Part shown: positions 3,352-64,000 of the stretch, piece after piece
How positions within the stretch are numbered: the stretch's first letter is position 1
Layout: each line of letters opens with the position of its first letter
Source of the DNA: Elusimicrobiota bacterium
Lineage (GTDB): Bacteria > Elusimicrobiota > Elusimicrobia > UBA1565
DNA: 64,000 nucleotides
Reading direction: 5' to 3'
Assembly: GCA_043819795.1 (NCBI GenBank)
Contig: JBDREN010000049.1
Span: 2,379-66,378 of the forward strand
Position numbers and translations under genes: made by a program
The notes under the pieces: generated by a model
Told to the model about the DNA's origin: nothing
Database searches by the model: none
The model's input: only the letters and a program-made list of their open reading frames with translations

Positions 3352-3555
3352 CCCGGGAGTATAACTTACCCATGAACGGCCTGCAAATCGCCGAATCGCC
3401 CCACGCTCCCTTCCTCTCCCCTCACGGAGAGAATTTCGTGCACATCCGCGGCGTTTCGCCGGGCGCGCGCATCTCAGTCCGGGCCAGCTCTCCATCCCGG
3501 CAGCGTAAAAACGGGACGCCGGTGGGGAGAATATGGTTAAATTGATGCCGCTCTC

Positions 3556-5052: not shown

Positions 5053-5071
5053 ACGAAGAGGCGGTATCCTT

Positions 5072-13045: not shown

Positions 13046-13441
13046 ACCGCCTCCCGGTCGGCTTCCCGCCGTTGTGCAGAGCCTCCCGCAGCTATCCCCG
13101 TCTGCGCCAAGATGGTACACTTTTGCGCAAGGCTCTTCCAGCTCACCGACGACGGCGCCATCGACGGCGGGAAGAGCGACGGCGTTCTCGCGGCGGAGAT
13201 CCCGATAGCGCCGGGGAGCCGGCGACGCGGGGCAAGCCTTGCGGCGCCGGGTTGACCCGCCGCAGGGGCGCGCGGCCGGCCGGAGAGACTCCATTAAAAG
13301 AAGCGGCCGGAACCGGCGGATTGTGCGCTATGCTGCGGCCCGCGGCGCCCCCCGGCCTATCGACGCGCGGGAGCGGCGCGGGCTAATAGGAGACGTGACT
13401 CCCGTGGATAGGCGACGCGGCGCCCTTCCGCCCAAAGGCGA

Positions 13442-37022: not shown

Positions 37023-37075
37023 GAAGGGCAACCCTTTGGATCCTCCGCTCGGGCCGTGGGCCGAGATCGCGCGCT

Positions 37076-47005: not shown

Positions 47006-47177
47006 CGTTGAAGCGGCCCGCTCGTAATGGGAAGGCCGTTCCCAAGCGAATCCGCGAGAGAGTGAGCGTCCTGGCCGGGTCGCCGCGTCTGTGTCTCCCC
47101 GGAAGGAACGAATGAATGCGTAGGCCGCGGGGCGAGCTTGCGGCGCTGGAAAGAATCCGCCGGTGTTGAACGCCGGT

Positions 47178-47220
47178 CCGCACGGCTGGGGATAGATCGG
47201 GAAAGTCCCCAGCCGTGCGG
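47178..47220. other. Perfect 15-bp stem hairpin (CCGCACGGCTGGGGA / TCCCCAGCCGTGCGG, 13-nt loop)
   Basis: Arms at 47178-47192 and 47206-47220 are exact reverse complements, followed by TGCTTTG. Possible weak terminator of the SBP transcript or a structured RNA element. Confidence 0.6.
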
Positions 47221-47470
47221 TGCTTTGAGGCCTGCCCGAGTATCCTAGCCCGAATTCCCCGTCTGGATCGCTGGATTCGACGCAAGATGCCGGGACTTTT
47301 CTGTGCGAAATGTCTCGACCGCACGGTTTCCTGACAGGGAGTGGAAGCGGCATTTCCTCGTGGTGACGCTTGGTCATGCCGCAGCGGGTACGCTCTCCAA
47401 ATTCCGCGTTGAACTGGCCTCGGCCTCTTGCATCTCGGTCCCACGCGCCCAACTGGGGAATCCGGGCCAG

Positions 47471-47771
47471 GTGTAGTGAACCATAAATCCCTTGACATTC
47501 GGGCGATCGATTTCGGCCTCCGGCTAGGCGCGGGGAGCGCGCATGCCCGCAGGTATGTAAGCGACGAGCAACGACGCCGGAAGCCAAAAGCGCCCGCCCC
47601 CTCCTCCTTGACGCGGACAGCGGCGAAATTCTATGGAAAGGGGAGGCCCGATCCCGGCCGATTCCCACGTTGCTCCTCGGTTGCATAGCTTAAGCCATGC
47701 GCCCTCATCGCGCCTCGAAATCGACTCGGGCTCGGGCCTCCAAATGACAAGGGATTTATGATTCACTACAC
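47471..47771. mobile_element. MITE-like non-autonomous element (~300 bp) bounded by 29-bp terminal inverted repeats
   Basis: GTGTAGTGAACCATAAATCCCTTGACATT (47471-47499) versus the reverse complement of 47743-47771 (GTGTAGTGAATCATAAATCCCTTGTCATT) matches at 27/29. Imperfect complementarity continues inward (CGATCGATTTCGG / CGAAATCGACTCG). No ORF inside. Confidence 0.45.
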
Positions 47772-47941
47772 TAGCGATGGCCACTTACTGATTCGGATGG
47801 GGCAAATCCTTTCTATAGCGCAGTATTGTTAAATATGAAACATGTGGCGCTGCTAAACGTTGCAAAAGAGAAACTAGAAGCAGTTTGGAGGCATTCTGAA
47901 CTGGTCAAAAAGAACGAAAAAAACGCAACTATTGGTGGCTA

Positions 47942-47970
47942 TTGCAAAATGGAACGATATCTGCTATAAT
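47942..47970 (+). promoter_or_regulatory. Promoter of the PAS/AAA+ regulator gene (sigma-70 TTGCAA-17-TATAAT, overlapping a sigma-54-like GG-N10-GC element)
   Basis: TTGCAA 47942-47947, 17-nt spacer, TATAAT 47965-47970 with TG at 47962-47963. Also TGGAACGATATCTGCT (47950-47965). RBS GGGAG lies 7 nt before ATG 48011. Confidence 0.5.
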
Positions 47971-48010
47971 AGAACCATAGCATACGTTTCCAGCCGCCGG
48001 GAGTTGATAT

Positions 48011-49369
48011 ATGCAGTTTGAAGGCCAAGGTCGTTTTTTCGAGACCATCCTCCGTTGTGTCGCTGACGGCGTGTTCACGGTGGACCGCGACTGGCGTATC
48101 ACCTCCTTCAATAAGGCGGCCGAGCGCATCACGGGCATGAGCGCCCGGCAGGCCATGGGCAAGAGATGCTCCGAAGTCTTTCACGCGGACCTCTGCGGTG
48201 ACGGCTGCGCCATCAGGCGGGCTCTCGAGACCAAACGCGAGGTCATCGAGCAGCCGGCCAATATCCGCGACCAGCGCGGCAGGGCGATCCCGATAAGCAT
48301 CAGCGCGGCCGTGCTTCGGGGGGAGGACGGGACCGTCCTCGGCGGGGTCGAGACGTTCCGCGACCTGTCGGCCATCGAGCAGCTCAGGCGCGAGATCCGG
48401 AGCCAGTACACCTTCGAGGAGATCGTCGGCAAGAGCGAGGCTTTCCAGAAGGTGTTCTCCATCCTGCCGGACGTCGCCGCCAGCGAGAGCACGGTCCTCA
48501 TCGAAGGCCCGAGCGGCTCCGGCAAACAGCTCCTGGCGCGGACCATACACAACCTGAGCCCCCGCCGGGATCGGCCTTACGTCGTGGCGAACTGCGGGAT
48601 GATGCCGTCCGGCCGCTGCGCGTCCGAGCTTTTCGGCCACGTGCGAGGCGCCTTCAAGGACGCCAAGGGGGACCGGCTCGGCCGCATCGCGCAGGCCGAA
48701 GGGGGGACCATCTTCCTGGACGAGATCGGCGACCTGTCGATGGAGAGCCAGGTCAGGCTCCTCAAGGTCCTTCGGGACGGAGAATACGAGCCGCTGGGCG
48801 GCGTCAGTCCCCGGCGCGCCGATGTGCGCGTGGTCGCTGCCACGAGCAAGAGCCTGCCGGATCTGGTCGGGCGGGGGCTTTTCCGCGACGATCTCTACTT
48901 CCGCCTGGCGGTGGTGCGGCTGAGCATACCGCCCCTGTCCGAGCGGCGCGAGGACATCCCCTGCCTGGTCGAGCACTTCGTCCAGCGCTTCAACGCCAAG
49001 CGCGGCAAGAGCATCCAGGGGGTGACGCCCGCGGCCATGGAGCTTCTCATGCGCCATGGTTTTCCCGGGAACGTGCGCGAGCTGGAGAACCTGATCGAAT
49101 GCGGCTTCGCTCTATGCCACGGCGGATGGATGGACGTCGGCCATCTGCCCGAGGATCTGAGGCCGTCGCGGCGGCCGGGCGCCGCCGGGCGCCGCCTCGA
49201 GGGCGCGTCCCTGCTCCGGCACATCGAGGCGGACGCGGTCCGCGCCTCCTTGGGGCGGAACGCGGGCCATCTCGGCCGCACGGCCGAGGAGCTGGGCATC
49301 AGCCGGACCACGTTGTGGCGCAAGATGAACAAGTACGCCATCGAAGCGGACGAGTTCCGGGCCGGTTGA
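48011..49369 (+). CDS. PAS-domain AAA+ enhancer-binding-protein-type transcriptional regulator (NtrC family, no receiver domain; GAFTGA replaced by GAFKDA)
   Basis: N-terminal PAS (ILRCVADGVFTVDRDWRITSFNKAAERITG), Walker A GPSGSGKQ, ELFGHVRGAFKDA, GGTIFLDEIGDL, RVVAAT, FRDDLYFRL, GNVRELEN, C-terminal Fis-type HTH GISRTTLWRKMNKY. Confidence 0.9.
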   Translation: MQFEGQGRFFETILRCVADGVFTVDRDWRITSFNKAAERITGMSARQAMGKRCSEVFHADLCGDGCAIRRALETKREVIEQPANIRDQRGRAIPISISAAVLRGEDGTVLGGVETFRDLSAIEQLRREIRSQYTFEEIVGKSEAFQKVFSILPDVAASESTVLIEGPSGSGKQLLARTIHNLSPRRDRPYVVANCGMMPSGRCASELFGHVRGAFKDAKGDRLGRIAQAEGGTIFLDEIGDLSMESQVRLLKVLRDGEYEPLGGVSPRRADVRVVAATSKSLPDLVGRGLFRDDLYFRLAVVRLSIPPLSERREDIPCLVEHFVQRFNAKRGKSIQGVTPAAMELLMRHGFPGNVRELENLIECGFALCHGGWMDVGHLPEDLRPSRRPGAAGRRLEGASLLRHIEADAVRASLGRNAGHLGRTAEELGISRTTLWRKMNKYAIEADEFRAG

Positions 49370-49388
49370 CCCGGGGGGAGAGAACGCG

Positions 49389-50762
49389 GTGAGCACCCAA
49401 AGGAAATACAGCTACTTCGTCGAGCCCAAGGCGCTCGAGGTCGCGGAGCGTCCGCGAAAATTCCTCATGGCATTCGCGGCCGTGCTGAAGAACGCCAGCT
49501 ACGGGCTGGCGCTCGATACGTACGCGCGCCTGAGCACCAAATGCGGGCGTTGCGTGGCCTCCTGTCAGCTCTATCAGACCACGCGCGAGGAGCGGGACAT
49601 CCCCTGCCATCGCTCCGAGCTCCTGCTGCGGGTGTACCGGCGGTACTTCACGCATTCGGGCCGCCTCAAGGCCAAGATATTCAGCGGTTTCGAGTTGACG
49701 GACGCCTACTTGGACGAGATGGGCGAGGCCTACTACCGCTGCACCGCCTGCCGGCGGTGCAAGGCCACCTGCCCCATGGGCATCGACCACGCCCTGGTCA
49801 CTCATCTGGCCCGGTGGCTGCTCTCGGAGATCGACGTCATCCCCAAGGCGCTGTTGGTGGCGACGCGCGAGCAGCTCGAGGGCGTCGGCAATACCTCGGC
49901 CATCCCGGTCCCCGCGCTCAAGGACACCTGCGAGTTTCTGGAGGAGGAGCTCAAGGAGATCACCGGCGTGGACATCAAGTTCCCCATGGATGTCGAGGGC
50001 GCCGAGTACGTCTTCTTCCCGGCGGTCTCGGACTATCTGCTCGAGGCGGACACCCTCATGGGCAACGCGGCCGTCATGCACGTCACCGGCGGGTCGTGGA
50101 CCATCGGCACGGGCAACTACGACGGCATCAACTACGGCCTGTTCTACAGCGATCGCATGATGGAGCGGATCGTCAACAACGTCGTCAAGGAGGTCCGCCG
50201 CCTCAAGGGGAGGAAGGTCCTCGTCGGCGAATGCGGCCACGCCACTCGCAGCGCCTGGTACGTGCCGGCCTTCGGCGGCCCGGACGCGCCGCCGGTGGTC
50301 AATTGCTTGCAGTACGCCCACCGGATGCTCGAGGCCGGGAAGCTCCCCCTGAAGAAAGAGCTTATCAAGGAGCGGGTCACCTATCACGATCCGTGCAATA
50401 TCGCCAGGAGCGGGCGGATCACCGAGGAGCCTCGGGAGCTCCTTAAGGCTATCTGCGGGGACTTCGTGGAGATGACGCCGAACCGCGCGGAGAACTACTG
50501 CTGCGGCGGAGGCGGCGGCACGGTCTCCATCGACGAGATCCGGGCTTTCCGCACGGGTCTCATGGGAAAGCGCAAGGCGGATCAGATCCGCGCGACCGGC
50601 GCCAAATACGTCGTGTCGCCCTGCGCCAACTGCAAGAAACAGCTCCGCGAGGTCTGCGAGGACAACGGCCTCAACGAGGTCGAGGTCGTGGGCCTGCACG
50701 ACCTGCTGCTGAAGGCGATCGACTTCGGGGTCCCCGAGAAGAAAGGAGAGGACGATGGGTGA
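49389..50762 (+). CDS. HdrD/DsrK/HmcF-like iron-sulfur protein (2x 4Fe-4S + CCG domain), cytoplasmic
   Basis: CGRCVASCQLY and CTACRRCKATCPMGIDH ferredoxin motifs. CCG-domain signatures YHDPCNIARS and NYCCGGGGG. Confidence 0.85.
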   Translation: MSTQRKYSYFVEPKALEVAERPRKFLMAFAAVLKNASYGLALDTYARLSTKCGRCVASCQLYQTTREERDIPCHRSELLLRVYRRYFTHSGRLKAKIFSGFELTDAYLDEMGEAYYRCTACRRCKATCPMGIDHALVTHLARWLLSEIDVIPKALLVATREQLEGVGNTSAIPVPALKDTCEFLEEELKEITGVDIKFPMDVEGAEYVFFPAVSDYLLEADTLMGNAAVMHVTGGSWTIGTGNYDGINYGLFYSDRMMERIVNNVVKEVRRLKGRKVLVGECGHATRSAWYVPAFGGPDAPPVVNCLQYAHRMLEAGKLPLKKELIKERVTYHDPCNIARSGRITEEPRELLKAICGDFVEMTPNRAENYCCGGGGGTVSIDEIRAFRTGLMGKRKADQIRATGAKYVVSPCANCKKQLREVCEDNGLNEVEVVGLHDLLLKAIDFGVPEKKGEDDG

Positions 50763-51465
50763 GCTAGAGATCTGGACCGAGTGGGCGCGCGGGCCGCTGT
50801 TCAGGGCCGCGCTGGCGTTCATGATCCTGGGCCTTCTGCGTCACGCGGCGTTGACCATATGGGAGCTGGCGGGGATCATGTACCGCGCCGGCGACAAGGC
50901 CTTCCCGTGGAGGCGGGCATTCTCCGCCACGCTAAAATGGCTTTTCCCGGTGGGGCAGATCAAGAACCGTGTCCTCTACAGCCTGACCACGCTCGGCTTC
51001 CATGCCGCCGTCATCATCGTTCCCGTTTTTCTCGCGGGCCACGTCGCGCTCTGGGAGCGGGGCACGGGCCTGTGCTGGCCGACCATCCCCAACGGCGTGG
51101 CGGACGTGCTGACGATCATGGCCGTGCTCGCGGCGGCCTTGCTCGTGGCGGAGCGCGCGGCCGCGCGGGACTCCCGGGCGCTGAGCCGCTTCCAGGACTA
51201 CGCCTTGCCCCTGCTCGTGGCCGCGCCCTTCGCGACCGGCTTCCTGGTCATGCATCCGGCTTTAAACCCGTTCGGCCATGAAGCGACGATTCTGGTCCAC
51301 GTGTTGAGCGCGGATATTCTGTTCATCCTCATCCCGCTGACCAAGCTGAGCCACATGATCCTGCTCCCGGGCACGCAGATCATCTCCGAGCTGTCCTGGC
51401 ATTTCCCGCCGGACGCCGGCAGGAAAGTGGGCGTCGATCTCGGGAAGGAGAAGCAACCCATATGA
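50755..51465 (+). CDS. NarI/DsrM/HmcE-like membrane cytochrome b subunit
   Basis: 8-nt overlap with the upstream gene. About 5 TM helices with conserved His (LLRHAAL, GFHAAVIIVP, GHVALWE, HVLSADILF, KLSHMILLP). Confidence 0.7.
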   Translation: MGELEIWTEWARGPLFRAALAFMILGLLRHAALTIWELAGIMYRAGDKAFPWRRAFSATLKWLFPVGQIKNRVLYSLTTLGFHAAVIIVPVFLAGHVALWERGTGLCWPTIPNGVADVLTIMAVLAAALLVAERAAARDSRALSRFQDYALPLLVAAPFATGFLVMHPALNPFGHEATILVHVLSADILFILIPLTKLSHMILLPGTQIISELSWHFPPDAGRKVGVDLGKEKQPI

Positions 51466-52595
51466 AGAAGCCCGTCGCCATCCTTACGGACACGACGCTC
51501 TGCACCGGCTGCGAGGAATGCGTCGCGGCGTGCAAGAAGGAGAACGGCCTGGGCGAGGATCGCCGGTGGCGCTGGCAAAGCTCCGTGAGCGAGCTTTCCG
51601 CGTCGCGCTTCACCGCAATCATCCGTCGGCCCGGCAACCGCTACGTCCGCCAGCAGTGCCGGCACTGCGTGGACCCGGCGTGCGTGAGCGCCTGCATCGT
51701 GGGCGCGCTGCGGAAGACGGAAGAAGGCGCGGTGGTCTACGACCAGGATAAGTGCATCGGCTGCCGTTACTGCATGCTGGCCTGCCCCTACGGGATCCCG
51801 CGCTACGATTGGGAGAAGCCGATCCCGTACATCAGGAAGTGCACGCTCTGCTATGACAGGCTTGAGGAGGGAAAGGCCCCCGCCTGCGTGGAGGCCTGCC
51901 CCGAGAAGGCGACGATATTCGGCTCCCGCTCCGATATGCTGGCCGAGGCCCATCGGCGCCTGAAACGGCATCCCGGGAAGTACGTCCAGAAGGTCTACGG
52001 GGAACGCGAGGTGGGGGGGACGTCGGTCCTCTACATCTCGGACATACCCCTTGATTTCCTCGGCTGGCAGACCGATCCCGGCGAGCGGCCGCTGCCGGAC
52101 CTCACGTGGGCCGCCCAAAGGAAGATCCCGGCCGCGGCTCTGGGGGTGTTCGGGCTCATGGGCGGCACCTACTGGGTCATCGGCCGGAGGATGCAGGCCG
52201 CGGCGCGGGCGGGCCTGAAAGACGCGCCCCGGGAAGGGGACGCCCCGTCCGTGGGGCACGGGCATCCGGAGCAGGGAGGGGCCCTCTCCGGCCTGAAGAC
52301 GGCCCTGTGGATGCCTCTCGGCGTGGTGGCGGCCGTGACCATCGTGCGTTTCGCGCGGAATCTGGACGCGGCCGCGAGCCTCGGGGACGGAGCCCTCTGG
52401 ACCCTGTGGCTCGCCCTCGGCGTGGCGGGAGGCACCGGTCTCGGGGCGGGGATCCATTGGCTCGCCGCCCGCCGCAAGAAGGCGCCGGAGGAGGACGCGG
52501 AGCCCGAGGAAGGAACTCCCACCCCGCCCGTCCAGGCGTCGAAGACTTCCGTTCCCAAGCAGATCGCGGGCGACGGCGGCCCGAAGGAGCGATAG
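51462..52595 (+). CDS. Four-cluster 4Fe-4S ferredoxin subunit (HybA/HmcB/DsrO/NrfC-like) with C-terminal TM helices and no signal peptide
   Basis: ATGA overlap. CTGCEECVAAC, CRHCVDPACVSAC, CIGCRYCMLACP, CTLCYDR..CVEACP. The first Cys is residue 14 (MKKPVAILTDTTLC). Three hydrophobic segments lie after residue ~215. Confidence 0.85.
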   Translation: MKKPVAILTDTTLCTGCEECVAACKKENGLGEDRRWRWQSSVSELSASRFTAIIRRPGNRYVRQQCRHCVDPACVSACIVGALRKTEEGAVVYDQDKCIGCRYCMLACPYGIPRYDWEKPIPYIRKCTLCYDRLEEGKAPACVEACPEKATIFGSRSDMLAEAHRRLKRHPGKYVQKVYGEREVGGTSVLYISDIPLDFLGWQTDPGERPLPDLTWAAQRKIPAAALGVFGLMGGTYWVIGRRMQAAARAGLKDAPREGDAPSVGHGHPEQGGALSGLKTALWMPLGVVAAVTIVRFARNLDAAASLGDGALWTLWLALGVAGGTGLGAGIHWLAARRKKAPEEDAEPEEGTPTPPVQASKTSVPKQIAGDGGPKER

Positions 52596-52599
52596 GGCG

Positions 52600-54561
52600 A
52601 TGATGCCTCTGAGAAGAATCAAGAGCCTGCTCTGGTTCGTCCTGGGCGCGGGCATGGTGACCATCGCCGCGCGGCTGCTCACCGGGCTCGGCGCGGTCAC
52701 CAACCTGTCCCACAACGTTTCCTGGGGCCTGTGGAACGCGGTCAAGATCAGCATCGTGCCCCTCTCGGCCGGAGGGTTCGTTTTGGCTGCGATCGTCTAC
52801 GTCTTCCATATGGAGAGGTTCCGTCCCGTGCTCCGTTTGGCCATCCTTACGGGGTTTTTGGGCTACTCGACCTTCGCCACGATGCTCATGTTCGATATCG
52901 GGGTGCCCTACCGGATATGGCATCCCATGGTCTACTGGCAGCACCATTCCGTGCTCTTCGAAGTGGCGTGGTGCGTGATGCTGTATCTGACCGTGCTGGC
53001 CCTCGAGTTCTTGCCCAACGTGCTGGAGCATCCTCTGCTGAAGCACCCCCTGCTCCAGAAGGGATACAAGCTCCTGAAGAGCGCGACCGTACCCCTGGTG
53101 ACCGCGGGGATCGTGCTGTCCACGCTGCACCAGTCGTCGTTGGGCTCGCTGTTTTTGATCGTCCCCCACCGTCTCGATCCCTTATGGTACAGCCCGCTGA
53201 TACACGCGCTCTTCCTGGTCTCCGCCGTCGGGATGGGGCTTCTGGTGATCGCCGTGGAGGCGGTCCTGATCGAGCGTCTCTACGGCGTCAAGGCGCCGCT
53301 GGACGTCCTCGCCCCTTTGGCCCGCGCGGGCGCGGTGGTGATGGCCCTCTTCTTGGCCGTCAGGCTGGCCGACCAGGTCGCTCGCGGGGTGCTCCCGGGT
53401 GCTCTGAGCACATCTCCGATGGCGGCGGCATTCGTCCTTGAGACTCTGATCGCCTCGATCGTGCCGCTGCTGCTTCTGCGCAGGAGCGTCCGCGAGAGCC
53501 GCGGGGGCCTGTTCGCCTGCTCTCTTTCCGCGGTGCTGGGAGTCGTCTGGTACAGGTCGAACGTCGCCTTGCTGGCCATCGACTGGGGCGAGGCGGCCTA
53601 TTTCCCGGCGTGGACCGAGTTCGCCCTGTGCTTCGGCATACTGGCCGGGTCGGGCTTGGTGTTCTTCTTGCTGCTGGAGAACCTGGACATTTATTACGGG
53701 CCGGCCGCATCCGGCCGTGACCGCGAGCCGCAGGTGCCGGGGTTGGCGTTCGAGGCTTGGCTGGCGGACGCGAGGATCACCGCGGCCAGGCGCTATTCCC
53801 TGTTCATCGTGGCGGGCGCGGCGGCGGCCGTCTTGTTTCTCCCCGAGGGCACGGTGTTCGGAGCCAGGCCCGCGGACACGCCGGCGGCGCAGGCCCGGCG
53901 GGTCCGGGGCTTGTCGGTCCGGACCGGCGGCGGACGCGTCAGCACGCTGCGCCTCGGCGAGAGGCCGGTCCCCGCTAAGGGCCGAGTGAAGCGCCTGCCG
54001 CTTTACCTGATTGACGGCGACCGCGATGAGGACGCGGTCCTCTTCGATCACGCGGGCCATGTCAAGCGGGCGGGCGGCGAGAAGCGCTGCGGGGTGTGCC
54101 ATCACCTGAACATGCCGCTCGACGAGAACACCTCCTGCCATGAATGTCATCGCGACATGTACGAGCCCGCCTCCGTGTTCAGCCACGCATCGCATGTGCG
54201 CGAACTCGGGGGGAACGCGGGCTGCGTCAAGTGCCATGAGGATCCTCTCGTGGTGAAGGACCGCCGGACGGCCGTCGCTTGCGGGGAATGCCACTCCGAT
54301 TCGGCGGCAAAGGGCTCCTTCGTCGAGGCGCCGGGGCCGAGGTGGGGGGCCGCGCCGGGCTACGCGGACGCGATGCACGGCCTCTGCGAGAGTTGTCATA
54401 AGAAGAAGGCGAAAGAAGAGCCGGGCCGTTATCCCGCGGCGCTGGGGCGTTGCGCCGCCTGCCACGATACGGACCGCCCCATGGATATCCGTCGGATGGC
54501 GCCGCGAAGTGATAGAATGCGGGCCATGCGCGCCGAGGAACGCGGGCTCTCGGGCGGCTGA
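52600..54561 (+). CDS. NrfD/DsrP/HmcC-like quinone-interacting membrane subunit fused to a C-terminal hexahaem cytochrome c domain
   Basis: NrfD hallmark GLGAVTNLSHNVSWGLWNAVKISIV plus multiple TM helices, then an extra TM (RRYSLFIVAGAAAAVLFL). Six CxxCH motifs lie between 54088 and 54465 (CGVCH, CHECH, CVKCH, CGECH, CESCH, CAACH). Confidence 0.85.
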   Translation: MMPLRRIKSLLWFVLGAGMVTIAARLLTGLGAVTNLSHNVSWGLWNAVKISIVPLSAGGFVLAAIVYVFHMERFRPVLRLAILTGFLGYSTFATMLMFDIGVPYRIWHPMVYWQHHSVLFEVAWCVMLYLTVLALEFLPNVLEHPLLKHPLLQKGYKLLKSATVPLVTAGIVLSTLHQSSLGSLFLIVPHRLDPLWYSPLIHALFLVSAVGMGLLVIAVEAVLIERLYGVKAPLDVLAPLARAGAVVMALFLAVRLADQVARGVLPGALSTSPMAAAFVLETLIASIVPLLLLRRSVRESRGGLFACSLSAVLGVVWYRSNVALLAIDWGEAAYFPAWTEFALCFGILAGSGLVFFLLLENLDIYYGPAASGRDREPQVPGLAFEAWLADARITAARRYSLFIVAGAAAAVLFLPEGTVFGARPADTPAAQARRVRGLSVRTGGGRVSTLRLGERPVPAKGRVKRLPLYLIDGDRDEDAVLFDHAGHVKRAGGEKRCGVCHHLNMPLDENTSCHECHRDMYEPASVFSHASHVRELGGNAGCVKCHEDPLVVKDRRTAVACGECHSDSAAKGSFVEAPGPRWGAAPGYADAMHGLCESCHKKKAKEEPGRYPAALGRCAACHDTDRPMDIRRMAPRSDRMRAMRAEERGLSGG

Positions 54562-54565
54562 AACC

Positions 54566-55681
54566 ATGGCCCCCAAAGAGATAGAAAGCTGGCTTCGATC
54601 GAGCCTCTTTAACGAGGTCCCGGTGAGCATCTGCGTGATCGACCGGGGTTTCCGGATCATCGAGGCGAACCGGAGGTTCAGGGAGGAATACGGCCCCTGG
54701 AAGGACCGGGCGTGCCACGAGGTCTGCAAGGGTCTGGAGGAGCCCTGCGAGCGTTGCGGCGCGGTCAAGACCTTCTCGGACGGGCGCGTGCGCAACCGGG
54801 AGGAGACGGGAGCGGGCGGGAAGCACTACCTGGTGCACATGGTCCCCATCACCACCGACGGCGGGGATATCTCCTACGTCATCGAGACGTTCACGGATAT
54901 CACGCAGGTGAAGCAGCTGGAGGGCGAGAAGCGCGAAGCCGAGCGTCTGGCCGCCGTCGGCGAGACCGTGGCCGGCATCGCCCACGGCATGAAGAACGTG
55001 CTTACCGGGCTCGAAGGCGGCGTCTATGCCGTCAATACGGGCATCCAGCATGGCGACGACGAGAGGATCACCGAAGGCTGGGCCATGCTCGAGGAGAATA
55101 TCGCGCGCATCTCGGAGTTTGTCAAGGAGTTCCTGGCTTTCTCCAAGGGGCGCATCGCGCGGGTGGCCTTCGTGGACCCCAACGCCCCGGCGCGGGCGGT
55201 CTTTGAGCTCTTCCGGGAGAAGGCCGCGCAGGCGGGCATCGAGCTGAAGGCGGACCTGCAAGAGGGGATTCCTCCCGCGCCCCTGGACGAGCAGGGGATC
55301 CACGCCTGCCTGGCCAACCTCGTATCGAACGCCCTGGACGCCTGCTCCATGGGCGAGCAGCGGCGCGCGTGCGTGGTGACGATTCGCTCCCGGGAGCGCA
55401 GCGGGACGCTAGTGTACGAGGTTGCGGACAACGGCCGCGGGATGGACTACGAGATCAGTAGGAAAGTGTTTTCGAGGTTCTTCAGCACGAAGGGCTCGGA
55501 CCGGGGCACGGGTCTGGGGCTGCTCACCACTAAGAAGACCATCCACCAGCACGGCGGCCGGGTCTCGTTCAGCTCCGAGGAGAGCAGGGGCTCGGTGTTC
55601 CGCATCGAGCTTCCCCGGGAAAGACTGCCCAAGCCGGGCGGGAAGCCCGCCCAACGACAGGCCGCGGAAGGAGACGCCTGA
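54566..55681 (+). CDS. Cytoplasmic PAS sensor histidine kinase
   Basis: ATG 54566 (MAPKEIESWL..). PAS with a four-Cys cluster, H-box LAAVGETVAGIAHGMKNVL, N/G boxes LVSNALDA, DNGRGM, GTGLGL. Confidence 0.85.
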   Translation: MAPKEIESWLRSSLFNEVPVSICVIDRGFRIIEANRRFREEYGPWKDRACHEVCKGLEEPCERCGAVKTFSDGRVRNREETGAGGKHYLVHMVPITTDGGDISYVIETFTDITQVKQLEGEKREAERLAAVGETVAGIAHGMKNVLTGLEGGVYAVNTGIQHGDDERITEGWAMLEENIARISEFVKEFLAFSKGRIARVAFVDPNAPARAVFELFREKAAQAGIELKADLQEGIPPAPLDEQGIHACLANLVSNALDACSMGEQRRACVVTIRSRERSGTLVYEVADNGRGMDYEISRKVFSRFFSTKGSDRGTGLGLLTTKKTIHQHGGRVSFSSEESRGSVFRIELPRERLPKPGGKPAQRQAAEGDA

Positions 55682-56229
55682 TGGACAAAGAGAACGCCAA
55701 AGGACGCGCCGAGGATAAGACCGTACTCGTGGTCGATGACGAGCCGAACGTGCGCCGCCACCTGGCCCACATCCTAGAGGACGCCGGCTTCAAGGTCCTT
55801 ACGGCCTCCGATGGGGATGAGGCCCTGAAGACCATCCGGGAGCGGCGCCCGGACATCATCTCGCTCGACCTGGTCATGCCGCGCAAGAGCGGGCGCCGGC
55901 TGCTCTACGAGCTGAAGAAGGATAAGGAGCTCTCCCGCATCCCGGTGGTCATCGTCACCGCGCACGCCCAGGACGAGCTGGGCCAGAGCGACATGGAAGC
56001 CATCAGGGAGAGCATGATCATATCGGGCCCGGGCTTCTATCTGGAGAAGCCGGTTAGGCCCATGGACTACGTGCGCTGCATCCAGGAAGCCCTGGGCATC
56101 GAAGTGGCGGATCAAGCCGCGGACAAAGTCAGCCTCAAGGACGAGCTGAAGCGGCAGATGCAGGGGGCGGAGCCGCACGCGCTGCGCCGCGCCCTCGAGG
56201 CGTTGAGAAAGAAAGGCCCGCCGCGCTAG
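55681..56229 (+). CDS. Response regulator, receiver domain with short C-terminal extension (no recognised output domain)
   Basis: TGATG overlap with the kinase gene. VLVVDDEPNVR..DIISLDLVMPRKSG..VVIVTAH..LEKP. Confidence 0.85.
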   Translation: MDKENAKGRAEDKTVLVVDDEPNVRRHLAHILEDAGFKVLTASDGDEALKTIRERRPDIISLDLVMPRKSGRRLLYELKKDKELSRIPVVIVTAHAQDELGQSDMEAIRESMIISGPGFYLEKPVRPMDYVRCIQEALGIEVADQAADKVSLKDELKRQMQGAEPHALRRALEALRKKGPPR

Positions 56230-56248
56230 AGGGCCGAGGAGACCTGCG

Positions 56249-56602
56249 ATGGCGAAGAAGATCCTGATCGTCGAAGACGAGCCGCACGTCGTGAAGTATC
56301 TCGAGATGTTCCTCCACGACGCGGGCTTCCAGACGGTATCCGCGAGCGACGGTCAGACGGGTCTGGAGCTGGCCAAGCGCGAGAAGCCGGACCTGGTGAT
56401 CCTGGACCTTATGATGCCGAAGAAGACGGGGACGGACTTCTACCGGAAGCTCTCCAGGGACAAGGAGCTCGGCGATACCCCCGTCATCGTGGTCAGCGGT
56501 CTGGCCGGCCGAGATCTCGTCGTCAGGAAGCCTGCGGCGGTGTTCGACAAGCCCCCGGACCGCGAGGGGCTCATCGCCGCCATCAAGAAAGCCCTCCCGT
56601 AG
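56249..56602 (+). CDS. Single-domain response regulator (receiver only)
   Basis: KILIVEDEPHV..DLVILDLMMPKKTG..VIVVSG..FDKP. Confidence 0.85.
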   Translation: MAKKILIVEDEPHVVKYLEMFLHDAGFQTVSASDGQTGLELAKREKPDLVILDLMMPKKTGTDFYRKLSRDKELGDTPVIVVSGLAGRDLVVRKPAAVFDKPPDREGLIAAIKKALP

Positions 56603-56651: not shown

Positions 56652-56676
56652 CGGCAGGAACGTTGCGTGCTATAAT
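56652..56676 (+). promoter_or_regulatory. Promoter of the hydrogenase operon: sigma-54-like -24/-12 (GG-N10-GC) overlapping an extended -10 TGCTATAAT
   Basis: CGGCAGGAACGTTGCG (56652-56667) and AGGAACGTTGCGTGCT (56656-56671) both fit GG-N10-GC. TGCTATAAT at 56668-56676. 33 nt upstream of ATG 56709. Confidence 0.45.
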
Positions 56677-56708: not shown

Positions 56709-57752
56709 ATGCTGTACAAGGTGATCACGAAGGCCGAGTTTCGGAAGTTCGTCGACGGCCTGATCCAGGACAACCAGACTATAGGCCCCAAGCGGGTCGC
56801 CACGGACGCGAAAGGCAAGCCCGTCTACCAGTTTGTCGAGGTCCGCTCCTTCGACGAGTTGGACCTCGACTACACGATCACCTACTCCTCGGTGAAGAAT
56901 TTCTTCCACCCCTTCCGCGAGGAGCTGTCTCGTTTCAAGCTGAAAGATGACGATTGGGAGCAGGAGATCGAATACCGCGTCAATCCGAGGGTCATCATCG
57001 GCGTGCGGCCGTGCGACATCAACGCCTTGGCGATCCTGGACAAGGTGTTCTTGAGCGGGAGATTCCCCTCGCCGTACTACATCGCCCGGCGCCGGAACAC
57101 CTTCCTGATCGGAATGGACCATCTGCCCCTGGATGACTGCTTCTGCGAGTCCCTGAACCGGCACGCCCCGCGCGAGGGGTTCAACCTCTACTGCTCGGAC
57201 ATCGGGGACAGATACTATCTCTCGATCCTTTCCTCAAAGGCCTTCAGCTTCCTCAAGAACGTGAGGACGAGCGAGCCCTCCAAGGCGGACAACAAAAGAT
57301 ACATCGAGAGAAGAAAGCTCATCAAACGGAGCTTCAAGACCAAGGTGGAGGTCTCGGGCCTGCCGAGCTTCCTGGACATCGAGTTCAAGTCCCCGATATG
57401 GGATAAATGGGGGGACAAGTGCCTGAACTGCGGGACATGCGCCATGGTCTGCCCCACGTGCTACTGCTACGGGGTGGAGCAGTCCGTGGACGTGGACCTG
57501 AAGACCGCCCGCAAGGAGCGCATGCTGTACTCCTGCAACGTCGTGGATTTCGCGGAGGTGGCCGGAGGGCACAACTTCAGGCCGAAGAAGGCGGACAGGC
57601 TGAAGTACCGGTTCTATCACCATTACAGGGGTTTCGAGGAGAACGCCGACGAGCAGATCTGCGTTGGCTGCAACCGGTGCGGCAGGGCCTGCCTGGCGGG
57701 GATCAACCCGAAGGACGTGATCAACGACTTGAGGCTGGAGACCGGAGAATGA
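56709..57752 (+). CDS. [NiFe] hydrogenase group 3b-type beta subunit (AsrA/HydB-like Fe-S protein)
   Basis: [37 protein letters not shown]. First gene of the beta-gamma-delta-alpha order known from sulfhydrogenases. Confidence 0.8.
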
Positions 57753-58663
57753 AGGCGGGATTCAAAATACCCAGGCAGGACATCAATCTCGAGCCGTTCA
57801 TGACGGCGCCTCCCCAGTTCAACCGCAAGACCATCGTCATGCGCACGGACAAGGTCTACAAGTGCGAGCTCATCAACATCGTCGAGCTGACCTCCATGGA
57901 GAAGCTCTTCCATCTCAAGATCATCGACCCCCGCGAGAGGAAGCTGTTCTCCTTCCGGCCGGGACAGTTCGTGATGGTCCAGGTGCCCGGCTCCGGGGAG
58001 GTCCCGGTCTCCATATCGAGCTCGAGCAACAACCGGGAGTTCCTGGAGCTGTGCGTCCGCAGGGCGGGGCGCACCACCGGCATGCTGCACCGGGCCCGGA
58101 TCGGCGCGAAGGTGGGGATCCGCGGGCCCTTCGGCTCGTCTTTCCCCATGGAGGAGATGGCTGGCCACAACGTCCTGCTGATCGCCGGAGGGCTCGGCCT
58201 GGCCCCCCTGCGCGCCCCCATCTGCTGGGTCAACGAGCGCCGGGACCAGTACGGCGACGTCCACATCCTCTACGGCGCCAAAGAGCCTTCCCAGATGCTC
58301 TTCACGTACGAATTCAAGGAATGGGAACGGGTGAACCACATCAATCTGCTGACCATCGTCGAGAAGGCGGACAAGGCCTGGAAGGGCGGGACGGGCCTCA
58401 TCACCGAGCTCTTCAGGGATTTCTCCATCAAGCCGCTCGACACCTACGCGATCGTGTGCGGGCCGCCCGTCATGTTCAAGTTCGTGTGCGGGCATCTGGA
58501 CTCCATCGGGGTTCCCATGAACCGCATGTTCGTCTCCCTGGAGCGGCGGATGCACTGCGGCATGGGCAAGTGCTGCCGGTGCATGGTGGGCTCGACGTTC
58601 ACCTGCGTGGAAGGCCCCGTGTTCGACTACTGGAGCGTCATGAATTTGAAGGAGGCGATTTGA
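57749..58663 (+). CDS. [NiFe] hydrogenase group 3b-type gamma subunit (FAD/NAD(P)-binding, 2Fe-2S; AsrB/HydG-like)
   Basis: ATGA overlap (57749-57752). [36 protein letters not shown]-terminal [10 protein letters not shown] cluster. Confidence 0.85.
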
Positions 58664-59415
58664 GATACCTCGGCATCGAGCTCAAGAAGCCCAGGATCGC
58701 CGTCTTCGACTTCACCTGCTGCGAGGGCTGCGAGCTGCAGCTGGCGAACAAGGAGGAGACCCTGGTCGATTTCCTCTCCCTTGTCGAGGTCGTGAACTTC
58801 CGGGAGGTGTCCTCGGACAAGAGCGAGGACTACGAGATCGCCTTCGTGGAGGGGGCGGTCTCGAGGGAGGATGAGGTCGCTCGCCTGAAGAAGATCAGGG
58901 TGAACGCGAAGGTCCTCGTGGCTTTCGGCGCCTGCGCCTGCTTCGGCGGCGTGAACCAGATCAAGAACAAGTTCCCGCTCAAGTCGGTCGTCCGAGAGGT
59001 GTACGGCAGGCACCGCGTGGCCACGTCCAAGGTGCGGAAGATCAGCGAAGTGGTCAAAGTGGATCTCGAGATCCCGGGCTGTCCGGTCTCCAAGAAAGAG
59101 GTGGAAAGGATCGTCGTCGCTCTGGTCACGGGCGCGGGCATCAGCCTGCCGAAGTACCCCGTCTGCCTCGAGTGCAAGGCGAAGTGCAACGTCTGCGTCC
59201 TGGACCTCGGGCAGATCTGCCTGGGTCCGATCACGCGCGCGGGCTGCGATTCGCCCTGCCCATCCGGGGGGACCGCGTGCCTGGGCTGCAGGGGGCCGGC
59301 GCCCGAGGCCAATTACGAGTCGTTCCTGCGGATATTGAAAGACCGGGGCTTCAAGGCCCCGGAGATCAAGGAGAGGCTCGAGTTCTACGGCGCCTTCAAC
59401 GGGGTCATGAGATGA
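58660..59415 (+). CDS. [NiFe] hydrogenase small (delta) subunit, group 3 type
   Basis: TTG 58660 overlaps the gamma stop, with GAAGGAGG upstream. [28 protein letters not shown], and distal cluster cysteines [12 protein letters not shown]. Confidence 0.85.
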
Positions 59416-60686
59416 AGCGCGCCAGGGAGATCACCGTACGCCATGTGACCCGGGTCGAGGGCCACGGCGACATCCATATCAAGGTGAAAGACGGCCGGCT
59501 CGTGGATGCGCGGTGGGCCGTGGTGGAGACCCCGCGTTTCTTCGAGGCCATGCTCAAGGGCATGTCCCATGATCTGGCGCCCATACTGACGGCCAGGATC
59601 TGCGGCATCTGCTCCATAGGCCACTGCCTGGCGAGCCTGAGGGCGGTGGAGAGGGCCATGGACGTCAAGGTCCCGGAGACCGCGCGGCTGTTGCGCCTGC
59701 TCGCCAAGCACGGCGAGACCCTTCAGAGCCACGCGCTCCACGTGTTCTTCCTGTCCGCGCCCGATCTCTTCAAGGTGGGGAGCGTCATCCCCCTGATCAA
59801 GTCCCATCCCGAGGTCGTCGGCATCGCGGCCAGGCTCAAGAAGCTGGGAAACGACGCTTGCGACCTGATCGCGGGGCGGACCACGCACCCGGTGAGCCTG
59901 GTGGTGGGCGGGCTCAGCAGGCTGCCCACGGACAAGCAGATCGAGGAGCTGAGGGGCGCGTTCCTTGCGAGGCTGCCGGACATGCGCGCGGCCGTCGACC
60001 TCTTCAAGACGCTTCCCATGCCGGACTTCCAGCGGGAGACGGAGTTCGTGTCATTGAAGGGCCAGGGGGACTATCCCTGGATCGGGGGGGATCTCGTGTC
60101 GTCCGACGGCGTCCGCAGGCCGGAGGACGGCTACCTGGCCATGACGAACGAATACAAAGTGGAGTTCAGCACCTCGAAGTTCGCCAAGCTGAGTAGGGAG
60201 TCCTTCGCGGTCGGCGCCCTGGCGAGGTTCAACAACAATCACAAGCATCTGCGGCCGGAGGCGAAGGGAGCCGCCAAGGCGCTGGGCTTGAGTCCCCTGA
60301 GCCACAACCCTTTCATGAACAACGTGGCCCAGCTCGTGGAATGCTATCACGTGATGCTGGAGTCCATCGAGTTGCTGGACGGGCTTCTGGGCCGCCGGGG
60401 AAAGACCGCGTCCCGTCCTTATAAAGTGAAGGCCGGCCGGGGCGTCGCCGCCGTGGAGGTGCCCCGGGGCATCCTCTACCACGAATACGAGCTCGACAAG
60501 AAGGGCAAGGTCGTCAGGGCGAACTGCGTCATCCCCACCACGCAGAACCACGCCAACATCCACCACGATCTCCGGGCGCTCGCCGCGCGGCTGGTGCGGG
60601 AAGGCAAAAGCGACGGGGAGATCACTTTGCTGAGCGAGATGCTGGTCCGGTCCTACGACCCCTGCATCTCCTGCTCCGTCCACTAG
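59412..60686 (+). CDS. [NiFe] hydrogenase large (alpha) subunit, group 3b type, ending at the C-terminal His
   Basis: ATGA overlap. VTRVEGHG, L1 motif [11 protein letters not shown]-terminal DPCISCSVH followed directly by TAG (60684-60686). Confidence 0.9.
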
Positions 60687-61706: not shown

Positions 61707-61735
61707 TTGATTTGGGAGTACAGTTAAGCTATACT
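61707..61735 (+). promoter_or_regulatory. Putative sigma-70 promoter of the MerR-family gene
   Basis: TTGATT (61707-61712), 17-nt spacer, TATACT (61730-61735) in an AT-rich island. The palindrome CTATATAG overlaps the -10 region. Confidence 0.4.
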
Positions 61736-61756: not shown

Positions 61757-62272
61757 ATGGTAGACCCTGCAAAGGCTTTTACCGAACCTGTGATTGCGAT
61801 CGGGACGCTGGCTGAGAAGAGCGGCCTTTCCGTATCCGCGATCCGGAAGTACGAGGCGGAGGGCCTGCTCATTCCCTTTCGGACGCCTTCCGGCCATCGC
61901 CTGTTTTCTCACGAGGACATGGACCGGGTGAAGATCATCCGCCACATGATCCAGGAGCTGGGCCTGAACATCGAGGGCATCAGGAGGCTGCAGGCGCTGC
62001 TTCCGTGCTGGGAGCTGGTCCGGTGCTCGGAGGATAAGCGAAGCGAGTGCCCGGCCTACAAAGACAACTCCAAGCCGTGCTGGATGGTCCGGGGAGGGGA
62101 CTGCAGCGCGCGCGGGAACGAATGCCGCAGCTGCGCGGTGTACCGGTTCGGCTCGCAGTGCACCGAGGACATCAAGCGCGTGGTGCACAACCGGGCGGCT
62201 CCGGAGGAGCTGAGCGAGGAAGTGCGGAAGGCTTTGAACAGGCTGGAACAACCTGAGAAGGGGGATAGATGA
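61757..62272 (+). CDS. MerR family transcriptional regulator with C-terminal cysteine-rich (2x PCW) domain
   Basis: MerR HTH IGTLAEKSGLSVSAIRKYEAEGLL..RTPSGHRLFS, then LLPCWELVRCSEDKRSECPAYKDNSKPCWMVRGGDCSARGNECRSCAVYRFGSQC. Confidence 0.85.
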   Translation: MVDPAKAFTEPVIAIGTLAEKSGLSVSAIRKYEAEGLLIPFRTPSGHRLFSHEDMDRVKIIRHMIQELGLNIEGIRRLQALLPCWELVRCSEDKRSECPAYKDNSKPCWMVRGGDCSARGNECRSCAVYRFGSQCTEDIKRVVHNRAAPEELSEEVRKALNRLEQPEKGDR

Positions 62273-63156
62273 TAGTCATACTCACCTATGTCGCGTTGAT
62301 CGTGTTCGGGGCGGGATTCCTTTATAGAGGCTTAAGCATCGCGATGATGCCGGTGCATCTGCGATGGGAGCTCGCGCCCGTGCCGCACGAAAAAGGAAGA
62401 GCCCATTACGGGGGGTCTTACCTGGAGGAGTTCGAGTGGTGGACCAAGCCCAGGGAGAAGTCGCTTGTGGGCGAAGCCTTCTACATGTTCCAGGAGATCG
62501 TCTTCCTCAAGGGAGTCTGGGAGCACAACCGCTCTTTGTGGGTGTTCTCCTTCCCGTTCCATTTCGGTTTGTACCTGCTCGTCGGCATGGGGGGGTGCCT
62601 CATCCTGGCGTCTTTCGGCGTCCCATTCTTCGGCCCGGCGGCTTTGGCCCTCGGAGGAGCGGGCTACGTGCTGGGCAGCGTCGGGACCTTGGGGCTCCTT
62701 GCCAGGCGCGCCTTCGACCCCAAGCTCAAGCCCTTCACCAGCATGGCGTCGTATTTCAACCTCCTGTTCCTGGCGGCGGTGTTCGTGACCGGCTGCGTCG
62801 CGTTGTTCTCGGGGGGCTTTCTGGCGGACATGACCTCCTACCTCAAGGCCGTCGCCTTCGCCGAGGCGGGGCCGGCGCTGGGCGCCGCGATCTCGACGCA
62901 CATCGCCGTGGGGATGCTCTTCCTCGTCTACCTGCCGTTCACCTACATGATGCATTTCGTGGCCAAGTACTTCACCTACCACGAAGTGCGGTGGAACGGC
63001 GAGCCCATGTCGGGCAATGACGCCATGCAGGAAGAGGTCAAGAAGCTGCTCGGGCAGACCGTGACGTGGTCCGCTCCACACATCGGCGCCGACGGCAAGA
63101 AGAACTGGGTCGATATCGCCACCGCGGGGACAGCCAAGGAGAAAAAAGATGCCTAA
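62269..63156 (+). CDS. DsrM/HmeC/NarI-like membrane cytochrome b subunit
   Basis: ATGA overlap with the MerR gene. MPVHLRWELAPVPHEKG, FQEIVFLKGVWEHNRSLWVFSFPFHFGLYLL, YMMHFVAKYFTYH. Confidence 0.75.
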   Translation: MIVILTYVALIVFGAGFLYRGLSIAMMPVHLRWELAPVPHEKGRAHYGGSYLEEFEWWTKPREKSLVGEAFYMFQEIVFLKGVWEHNRSLWVFSFPFHFGLYLLVGMGGCLILASFGVPFFGPAALALGGAGYVLGSVGTLGLLARRAFDPKLKPFTSMASYFNLLFLAAVFVTGCVALFSGGFLADMTSYLKAVAFAEAGPALGAAISTHIAVGMLFLVYLPFTYMMHFVAKYFTYHEVRWNGEPMSGNDAMQEEVKKLLGQTVTWSAPHIGADGKKNWVDIATAGTAKEKKDA

Positions 63157-64000
63157 GCCCCTGAGAGTCGAGGATTTCGGGAAGAACGAAGGGCAGCAGC
63201 TGACCAGCGTCGACATGAGCGACCTGGTCCCCCTGCCGCCCCCTTACGACAAGATCGAGGAGCAGCCGGTATGGAAGGAGATCAAGCCGGAGGCGAAGGA
63301 GAAGATGGCCTGCAACCTCGACGGGGTGGTCGCCTGCAGCCTGCCCAAGCCCAAGGACGCCGCCGAGGAGCAGGAGATCGTCGACAAGTTCGTCTCGGGC
63401 CTTAGGAAAATCCTGACGAAAGAGAACAATTGGACCTTCCTCCAGCCGCTTATGCTGTCTTTGGAGTACTGCGCCAAGTGCCAGACCTGCAACGACGCCT
63501 GCCCGGTCTACGAATTCAGCGGCAAGAACGACCTCTACCGGCCCACTTACCGTTCCGAGGTGTGGCGGCGCCTGGTCAACAAGTACGTCAAGTCCGGCCC
63601 CAAGTGGCTGGCGAAGTTCAAGCACGGGGATATCGACCTTAACTGGACGACGGTCTCGAGGCTCTACGAGCTTGCCTACCGCTGCACCTTGTGCCGCCGC
63701 TGCGCGCAGGCCTGCCCCATGGGAGTCGACAACGGGCTCATCACCCACGAGCTGCGCAAGATCTTCAGCCAGGAGCTGGGCTGGGCCCCGAAGGAGCTCC
63801 ATGAGAAGGGCACCGTGCTGCAGCTCGATGTCGGCTCCTCGACGGGCATGAGCCCCCTGGTGGTCAAGGACAACATCGAGTTCGTGGACGAGGACTTCTC
63901 CGAGGAGTCCGGCCTGGACGCCAAGACTCCGTGGGACAAGGAGGGCGCGGAGGTCCTGCTCATCCATAACGCGGGCGAGATCATGACCTGGCCGGAGAAC
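63149..64000 (+). CDS. DsrK/HdrD/HmeD-like iron-sulfur protein, 3' end beyond window
   Basis: Not in the ORF track because no stop is reached. I translated it by hand: ATG 63149 after AAGGAG, open to nt 64000. EYCAKCQTCNDACPVY and YRCTLCRRCAQACPMGVDN. Confidence 0.8.
   Translation, partial: MPKPLRVEDFGKNEGQQLTSVDMSDLVPLPPPYDKIEEQPVWKEIKPEAKEKMACNLDGVVACSLPKPKDAAEEQEIVDKFVSGLRKILTKENNWTFLQPLMLSLEYCAKCQTCNDACPVYEFSGKNDLYRPTYRSEVWRRLVNKYVKSGPKWLAKFKHGDIDLNWTTVSRLYELAYRCTLCRRCAQACPMGVDNGLITHELRKIFSQELGWAPKELHEKGTVLQLDVGSSTGMSPLVVKDNIEFVDEDFSEESGLDAKTPWDKEGAEVLLIHNAGEIMTWPEN

Follow-up and report, generated by a model that had tools for sequence, protein, structure and literature searches.

A putative group 3b [NiFe] hydrogenase operon from an Elusimicrobiota bacterium, with a large subunit that ends without a C-terminal extension

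The closest described relatives of the four-gene operon that we analyse here (positions 56709-60686 of a 64,000-nucleotide stretch, hereafter the window, of contig JBDREN010000049.1 in the Elusimicrobiota assembly GCA_043819795.1) are soluble hydrogenases I and II of Pyrococcus furiosus (SHI, HydBGDA, PDB entries 9nez and 9e15; SHII, ShyBCDA) and HyhL of Thermococcus kodakarensis (5yxy), four-subunit enzymes whose gene order is like that of the window. Among bacteria, enzymes from metagenome-assembled genomes (MAGs) of Ca. Auribacterota have been published as group 3b sulfhydrogenases (PMC9324843), and groundwater Elusimicrobia of lineage V have already been reported with group 3b enzymes (10.1101/765248). 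Groups 2b, 2d, 4c, 4e and 4g have been listed as the [NiFe] hydrogenases without a C-terminal extension on the large subunit, a list on which group 3b does not figure (PMC7294309), and the literature that we searched contained no paper tying group 3b to the absence of the extension. We propose, with good confidence, that the operon specifies a heterotetrameric [NiFe] hydrogenase of group 3b, located in the cytoplasm and belonging to the bacterial branch of the 'sulfhydrogenase' family, and that this enzyme is made without an endopeptidase step.

Four subunits and their class

The genes for the beta, gamma, delta and alpha subunits follow one another with 4-nucleotide overlaps (ATGA at 57749-57752, TTGA at 58660-58663 and ATGA at 59412-59415; coordinates in Table 1), and our reading of the open reading frames (ORFs) agrees with an earlier note on this DNA, which had described a complete operon in the hydBGDA order. 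Because the gamma/delta junction is TTGA, the start codon of delta must be TTG; this is the sole in-frame start candidate before the first CxxC motif and has AGGAGG 5 nucleotides upstream. The N-terminus of gamma is conserved among homologues, and its ATGA overlap with beta was read directly. The G+C content at third codon positions (GC3) is 0.89-0.92 across all four genes, matching that of neighbouring genes. At the far end, a convergent ribokinase gene has a stop codon that overlaps that of alpha (TAG, 60684-60686), so that no intergenic terminator is possible between the two genes. The order beta-gamma-delta-alpha is kept in nearly all members of our comparison set, which comprises 80 related loci from many phyla, found by scanning one genome per species.

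The group-3b-type, sulfhydrogenase-like identity proposed in the same note is supported for all subunits, with best NCBIfam and PDB matches to the Pyrococcus/Thermococcus 3b enzymes. The beta subunit contains Pfam Fer4_22 (8e-28), scores 222 bits with the ShyB model, 191 with HydB and 146 with AsrA, and has as its sole PDB match the beta chain of P. furiosus SHI (9nez_B, 171 bits), to which its Cys motifs align. The gamma subunit contains FAD_binding_6, NAD_binding_1 and DHODB_Fe-S_bind, and its NCBIfam scores are 272 bits for PRK08345, 232 for ShyC, 209 for HydG and 185 for AsrB; its best PDB match is SHI gamma (9nez_C, 207 bits), with C270, C275, C278 and C286 aligned to the cluster cysteines of the P. 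furiosus protein. The delta subunit matches Oxidored_q6 (6e-27), HydD (183 bits) and ShyD (164 bits), and all 12 cluster cysteines of its best PDB match (SHI delta, 9e15_A, 178 bits) are conserved among its 15 Cys. Its N-terminus, read for a twin-arginine translocation (Tat) signal, has no twin-arginine motif; delta is of the cytoplasmic type and carries the cysteines for three [4Fe-4S] clusters, as expected of group 3b. The alpha subunit belongs to NiFeSe_Hases and is ranked closest to ShyA (255 bits) and HydA (242), ahead of FrhA (155), VhuA (152) and NiFeSe (145), and the PDB chains give the same picture (SHI 221 bits, HyhL 215, MvhA 191, HoxH 148/144, Frh at most 134, group 1 at most 96). 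Its motifs are RVEGHG (residues 14-19), L1 of the RxCGxCxxxH type (62-71) and L2, DPCISCSVH (416-424); the Ni-Fe ligands of L1 and L2 are intact, as previously claimed, and both motifs are invariant in an alignment of 17 homologues.

All of these scores fall below the cut-offs of the SHI/SHII equivalog models (NCBIfam NF040828-NF040836), which are tuned to Thermococcales: 255 against 700 for alpha, 222 against 690 for beta, 232 against 600 for gamma and 183 against 500 for delta. Measured in this way, the window enzyme is of the same family as the Thermococcales SHI and SHII and of a different orthologous subgroup. The alpha subunit is 100% identical to an NCBI protein encoded on a 91 kb contig of an Elusimicrobiota MAG; the generic name of that protein in NCBI is correct, and homologues of alpha number in the thousands. 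The best 120 are 64-76% identical, nearly all about 424 amino acids long, and include proteins of Chloroherpeton thalassium and Ca. Auribacterota; two homologues with 70% identity (P0024 and P0045) come from MAGs whose enzyme is the published group 3b one (PMC9324843). Judged by this homology, the operon is a further, ordinary member of a known bacterial group 3b clade, and the enzyme itself adds little, group 3b being widespread and already known from Elusimicrobiota and the identical protein being present in NCBI.

Three other class assignments were considered and rejected. The pairing of AsrA-like beta and AsrB-like gamma with a hydrogenase dimer, which is diagnostic of group 3b, stands in place of the MvhD of group 3c (Mvh-type, Hdr-linked); MvhA scores below the 3b enzymes, and the HdrD-like genes near the hydrogenase belong to a separate Hmc-like operon. 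Group 3a (F420-reducing), the label that JGI gives to some homologues, is contradicted by the absence of an FrhB-like gene and by an FrhA score of 155 bits against a cut-off of 392. For the anaerobic sulfite reductase AsrABC, there is no AsrC, gamma is followed by the delta and alpha hydrogenase genes, and the AsrA and AsrB scores are below cut-off.

The end of the large subunit and its maturation

The stop codon of alpha stands directly after His424 of DPCISCSVH, and no C-terminal extension is encoded. In P. furiosus, the alpha precursor has 428 residues and the mature chain in 9e15 has 424, indicating that the window alpha would be made in an 'already processed' form. The same His is the last residue in all 120 of the closest homologues. 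In the comparison set, 39 of 79 genome loci have no extension on alpha, namely every locus with at least 55% identity plus two Dehalococcoidales, and the remaining 40 (47-53% alpha identity) carry a C-terminal tail of 6-9 residues.

The distribution of the protease gene follows that of the tail. In tblastn searches with 3b-type HycI probes, a HycI gene was found in 33 of the 40 extension-bearing loci, directly after alpha in 32 of them, and an adjacent HycI gene was found in none of 45 extension-less loci, the window included, where only two weak distant matches occurred in 778 kb. Of the loci with enough downstream DNA, none of 40 without the extension has a HycI gene next to the operon, whereas 32 of 38 with the extension do (Fisher p = 3.5e-16). 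With E. coli HycI as the only probe, 10 of 38 loci had been found, an under-detection, and proteases from related loci were used in its place; the protease of one such locus (L055) belongs to Pfam HycI. By these counts the assembly peptide and the protease that acts on it have both been lost from the clade, and this is a trait of the whole clade and not of the window genome alone. The tail and the cognate HycI/HybD-type endopeptidase that define a canonical protease-dependent large subunit are both missing from the window. The absence of an endopeptidase gene, which the earlier note had pointed out, is thereby accounted for: no endopeptidase is expected because alpha has no C-terminal extension, a feature that the note had overlooked.

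Among 50%-identity representatives with a recognisable L2 motif, 33 of 136 have no tail and eight appear to have a fused protease domain instead; the tail has been lost more than once. The eight large subunits with 130-200 residues after the L2 His are P0144, P0218, P0230, P0242, P0249, P0253, P0261 and P0262. A GNxxxxDD(G/A) endopeptidase motif is present in the tail of at least three of them (P0253, P0261 and P0262), which suggests natural hydrogenase-protease fusions. In the extension-bearing sister clade, alpha with its tail of 6-9 amino acids and HycI can be followed by a receiver-only regulator and a histidine kinase (e.g. L055, 8258-11845); such a regulator/kinase pair occurs after alpha/HycI in about 16 of 40 loci and suggests that the sister-clade hydrogenases are under dedicated two-component control.

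The remaining maturation genes were sought in the same window. Some 56 ORFs, which together span the 64 kb, were scanned with Pfam and include no member of the HypA-F or HycI families; E. coli HypA-F and HycI, used as tblastn queries, had no match with E below 0.2 (HycE, the positive control, matched alpha at 2e-10), and twelve 3b-type HycI proteases from related loci gave no tblastn match. A six-frame regular-expression search for Hyp/HycI signatures, which returned only meaningless short HypA-like matches, was superseded by tblastn. The scan and the two tblastn tests thus bear out the earlier statement that the window holds no hyp or endopeptidase gene, but not the suggestion that the lack of nearby maturation genes is noteworthy, since it is usual in the family. 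A hyp gene lies within 10 kb in only 6 of 79 related loci, and the operon also stands alone in the cultured Chloroherpeton thalassium and in loci L001-L004. For annotators this implies that 'no hyp genes nearby' in the 3b family is neither unusual nor a reason to take the enzyme for non-functional. At L087, where alpha is 72% identical, a hypA-hypF-hypC-hypD-hypE cluster (682-5836) stands beside the extension-less 3b operon in divergent orientation and includes no HycI gene. The gene called before gamma in that locus, of 295 amino acids, runs on the opposite strand, and tblastn places beta in two frames; the beta gene there may contain a frameshift or an assembly error.

Going by the homology with SHI of P. 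furiosus, H2 would be split or formed at a Ni-Fe site of alpha held by Cys64, Cys67, Cys418 and Cys421. Electrons would pass from alpha through three [4Fe-4S] clusters of delta to iron-sulfur clusters of beta, and from there through the [2Fe-2S] cluster and flavin adenine dinucleotide (FAD) of gamma to the NAD(P)+/NAD(P)H bound by that subunit. The enzyme is expected to be bidirectional, recycling H2 into NAD(P)H or venting excess reductant as H2 when the H2 pressure is low, with the direction presumably set by the H2 pressure and the NAD(P)H/NAD(P)+ ratio. Its active site would be assembled by HypA-F proteins encoded elsewhere in the genome, and no final endopeptidase step would be needed, since translation of alpha stops at the very His that cleavage normally exposes. 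The operon would be read from its own promoter-like element, which is identical to that of the upstream operon, so that both operons are probably switched on together.

Several points weigh against this account. The 3b class is a ranking by profiles, PDB chains and the diagnostic beta/gamma pair rather than a phylogenetic tree, and the sub-cut-off NCBIfam scores mean that the NADP/NAD preference and the direction of catalysis are extrapolated from the archaeal enzymes. The literature searched yielded no biochemically characterised enzyme of the extension-less bacterial clade, no hyp genes of the window organism were seen in the 64 kb of its genome that were read, and the promoter was assigned by pattern only, its function being putative.

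If the account is correct, the extension-less 3b clade, which is large and spans several phyla, would be a natural test case within group 3 for the purpose of the peptide and its protease, and a simpler target for heterologous expression, needing the Hyp proteins only. An extension-less, protease-less 3b clade is possibly under-reported, and of moderate interest to specialists.

Flanking modules, a duplicated motif and other possible roles

The hydrogenase genes are preceded by a tightly packed operon of eight genes on the + strand (48011-56602), which we treat as context only, its membership of a hydrogenase system being putative. The HmcC/NrfD-like protein of this operon (52600-54561) carries a C-terminal multihaem cytochrome c3/c7 domain in place of a separate HmcA. 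The activator encoded at 48011-49369 is devoid of a receiver domain, shows GAFKDA in the place of the expected sigma-54 contact motif GAFTGA, and may work without sigma-54. Downstream, beyond the convergent ribokinase gene, a NarI-like and DsrK-like pair spans 62269-64000, and a sigma-70-like promoter is found at 61707-61735; the MerR gene and this pair form a separate small operon.

Table 1. Positions in the window of the hydrogenase genes, the promoter-like motifs and the flanking genes
Feature	Position	Strand	Remarks
Second exact copy of the promoter-like motif, GGAACGATATCTGCTATAAT	47951-47970	+	41 nucleotides before the activator gene that heads the upstream operon
PAS-AAA+-HTH (helix-turn-helix) activator	48011-49369	+	Pfam
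HmcF/DsrK-like CCG protein (HdrD-like)	49389-50762	+	Pfam, NCBIfam
HmcE/TmcC-like membrane protein	50755-51465	+	Pfam, NCBIfam
HmcB-like 4x[Fe-S] protein	51462-52595	+	Pfam, NCBIfam
HmcC(NrfD)::cytochrome c3 fusion	52600-54561	+	653 amino acids; Pfam, NCBIfam
Soluble PAS histidine kinase	~54566-55681	+	Pfam
Two receiver proteins	55681-56229, 56249-56602	+	Pfam
Promoter-like motif, GGAACGTTGCGTGCTATAAT	56657-56676	+	33 nucleotides before the beta start codon
Beta subunit gene (HydB/ShyB-like, AsrA-like iron-sulfur protein)	56709-57752	+	347 amino acids
Gamma subunit gene (HydG/ShyC-like, AsrB-like FAD/NAD(P)/[2Fe-2S])	57749-58663	+	304 amino acids
Delta subunit gene (hydrogenase small subunit)	58660-59415	+	251 amino acids; TTG start
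Alpha subunit gene ([NiFe] large subunit)	59412-60686	+	424 amino acids
Convergent ribokinase gene	ends 60683-60685	-	separates the hydrogenase from the downstream module
MerR gene, then NarI/DsrM-like membrane protein and DsrK-like protein	61757-64000		cut by the window end

Upstream of beta, and again upstream of the activator gene, lies a motif that we read as an extended -10 element (TGcTATAAT) with GGAACG 5 nucleotides upstream of it, i.e. GGAACG-N5-TGCTATAAT. The pattern TGNTATAAT has exactly two sites in the window, where 0.05 are expected; all 15 motif positions are exact at both sites, and no further match was found in the window at up to 3 mismatches. Among related loci, GGAACG occurs upstream of beta in L004 and L089, where the related strings are GGAACGTT at -101 and GGAACGATAT at -56, respectively, and the 10-mer of L089 is identical to the first copy in the window. 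As a conserved operator, GGAACG was rejected, its 5 occurrences over 68 loci being no enrichment over the 3.8 expected. A sigma-54 promoter was also rejected. With at most 3 mismatches, the consensus TGGCACG-N4-TTGCW has 57 matches in the window against 74 expected, which is no enrichment. Strong -24/-12 sites stand upstream of beta in just two (L031 and L055) of about 65 related loci, and a GG-N10-GC spacing, which is possible at the motif, is weakened as an indication by the GAFKDA of the activator and by poor conservation; we make no claim of dependence on sigma-54. In the stretch between the upstream operon and beta, neither a structured RNA (fold z-score -1.4, non-significant) nor a terminator (terminator-like matches at chance expectation) was detected, and the window contains no Rfam families or tRNAs. 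The roughly 1 kb upstream of the activator (47005-48008) contains no convincing ORF and has a lower G+C content of 0.61, and no Rfam family or tRNA was found in it.

These neighbours bear on the idea that the hydrogenase is coupled to the flanking HdrD/DsrK-type membrane complexes and exchanges electrons between H2/NAD(P)H and an Hmc-like or DsrMK-like module, which we regard as unlikely. The earlier note had placed the operon between two such modules and had suggested the coupling from this position. Both modules exist, but neither adjoins the hydrogenase, since signalling genes intervene on one side and the ribokinase and MerR genes on the other. No evidence ties the downstream NarI/DsrK-like pair, which lies behind a convergent gene and has its own MerR gene and promoter-like site, to the hydrogenase. 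For the upstream module a part of the proposal survives: the hydrogenase and Hmc-like operons form a same-strand cluster of 12 genes with a gap of 106 nucleotides and no convincing terminator, and they have in common the exact 15-position motif found nowhere else in the 64 kb. In L089 (alpha 73% identical), moreover, an HmcB-like gene (56%) and a full-length NrfD::cytochrome c3 fusion (38%, 5727-7496) flank the operon in another, convergent arrangement. From the shared motif and L089 we consider it plausible that the hydrogenase is co-regulated with the upstream Hmc-like operon. Shared regulation need not mean electron transfer, however, and gamma already provides a complete NAD(P)-linked electron exit. 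Three signalling genes separate the hydrogenase from the Hmc-like genes, only 2 of 80 loci of the wider set have Hmc/DsrK-like genes within 10 kb, and such genes are absent near the operon in the other close relatives L001, L002, L004, L044, L087 and L090. That a protease-independent 3b hydrogenase and an Hmc-like complex with an NrfD::cytochrome c3 fusion, co-regulated through a duplicated promoter element, may work together is similarly doubtful; if true, it would link cytoplasmic H2/NAD(P)H to periplasmic or quinone-level carriers, a pairing undescribed for group 3b.

A second possibility concerns sulfur. The main physiological role could be that of a sulfhydrogenase, in which the AsrA/AsrB-like beta-gamma pair would use H2 or NAD(P)H to reduce S0 or polysulfide to H2S. 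Beta and gamma do resemble AsrA and AsrB (146 and 185 bits), and the DsrK-like and Hmc-like modules nearby are reminiscent of sulfur metabolism. The archaeal type enzymes reduce S0 in vitro, which speaks for such a role, but the S0 reductase activity of P. furiosus is generally regarded as a side activity. Moreover, neither the operon nor the window contains a sulfur-specific catalytic subunit (AsrC or PsrA; Pfam scan of about 56 ORFs), and the sequence does not discriminate between sulfur reduction and NAD(P)-linked activity. The name 'sulfhydrogenase' has been applied to bacterial homologues (PMC9324843). On balance we think it unlikely that sulfur reduction is the principal role, and prefer an NAD(P)-linked hydrogenase.

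A sensory role is very improbable. By analogy with group 2b enzymes signalling via HoxJ/HoxA or HupT/HupR, the hydrogenase might sense H2 or redox state and feed the adjacent PAS kinase, receivers and activator. H2 sensors, like the window alpha, have no C-terminal extension (PMC7294309), and directly upstream are the genes for a soluble PAS kinase, for two proteins consisting of a receiver only, and for an NtrC-type activator with GAFKDA. The sister clade, with a receiver protein and kinase after alpha/HycI in the loci noted above, also favours it, and a degenerate GAFTGA of the GAFKDA kind is seen in sigma-70-dependent HupR-like activators. The complete NAD(P)-binding beta/gamma module nevertheless points to catalysis, signalling genes do not adjoin the operon in most extension-less loci, and the similarity is to catalytic 3b enzymes and not to group 2; for the neighbouring regulators, control of the operon is a simpler explanation than reception of its signal. 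Finally, that the operon is a non-functional remnant in a genome devoid of maturation machinery, as the lack of a hyp gene in the 64 kb might suggest, is scarcely credible, given four intact genes, the conservation of every ligand, a host-like codon bias (GC3 about 0.9) and the fact that stand-alone operons with typically unlinked hyp genes are the rule in the family, a cultured organism included.

Elsewhere in the window, and unrelated to the hydrogenase, are genes for two outer-membrane lipid-transport-type proteins, one TamB/YhdP-like (32269-37158, - strand, about 1630 amino acids) and the other AsmA/DUF748-like (13412-15985).

Relationship to known systems

The NAD(P)-linked group 3b hydrogenase that we propose can be set beside several known systems. 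One is the sulfite reductase AsrABC, in which AsrA and AsrB are homologous to beta and gamma, and whose sirohaem subunit AsrC is replaced in the window by the hydrogenase small and large subunits. With groups 2b, 2d, 4c, 4e and 4g, the window alpha shares a large subunit ending at the conserved His and, presumably, the use of Hyp proteins without an endopeptidase; those groups are sensor, CO-linked or Ech-type enzymes, whereas the window enzyme is assigned to 3b.

The likeness to P. furiosus SHI extends to the Ni-Fe and iron-sulfur cysteines, all of which align, to the absence of a Tat signal and to the FAD/NAD(P) and [2Fe-2S] motifs of gamma. The similarity to archaeal SHI and SHII is nonetheless distant (alpha 221 bits with the PDB chain, and 255 with ShyA against a cut-off of 700), and the SHI alpha precursor has a 4-residue C-terminal tail that is removed by a protease, whereas the window alpha has none. 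The sources differ as well, a presumably mesophilic bacterium in the case of the window and hyperthermophilic archaea in that of Pyrococcus and Thermococcus.

The sister 3b clade (L043-L086, from Bathyarchaeia, Thermotogae, Anaerolineae, Planctomycetota and others) has the same subunits in the same order, with alpha 47-53% identical, but there alpha bears a tail (FLDVEFV, for example) and is followed immediately by a HycI gene in 32 of 38 loci. The window enzyme falls in one clade with the bacterial 3b enzymes of Chloroherpeton thalassium ATCC 35110, Ca. Auribacterota and groundwater Elusimicrobia, where alpha is 65-76% identical, typically 424 amino acids long and ends at His, and where the four genes form a stand-alone operon. 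The flanks of these operons vary by genome, and the Hmc-like and two-component neighbourhood with its duplicated motif belongs to the window genome and, in part, to L089.

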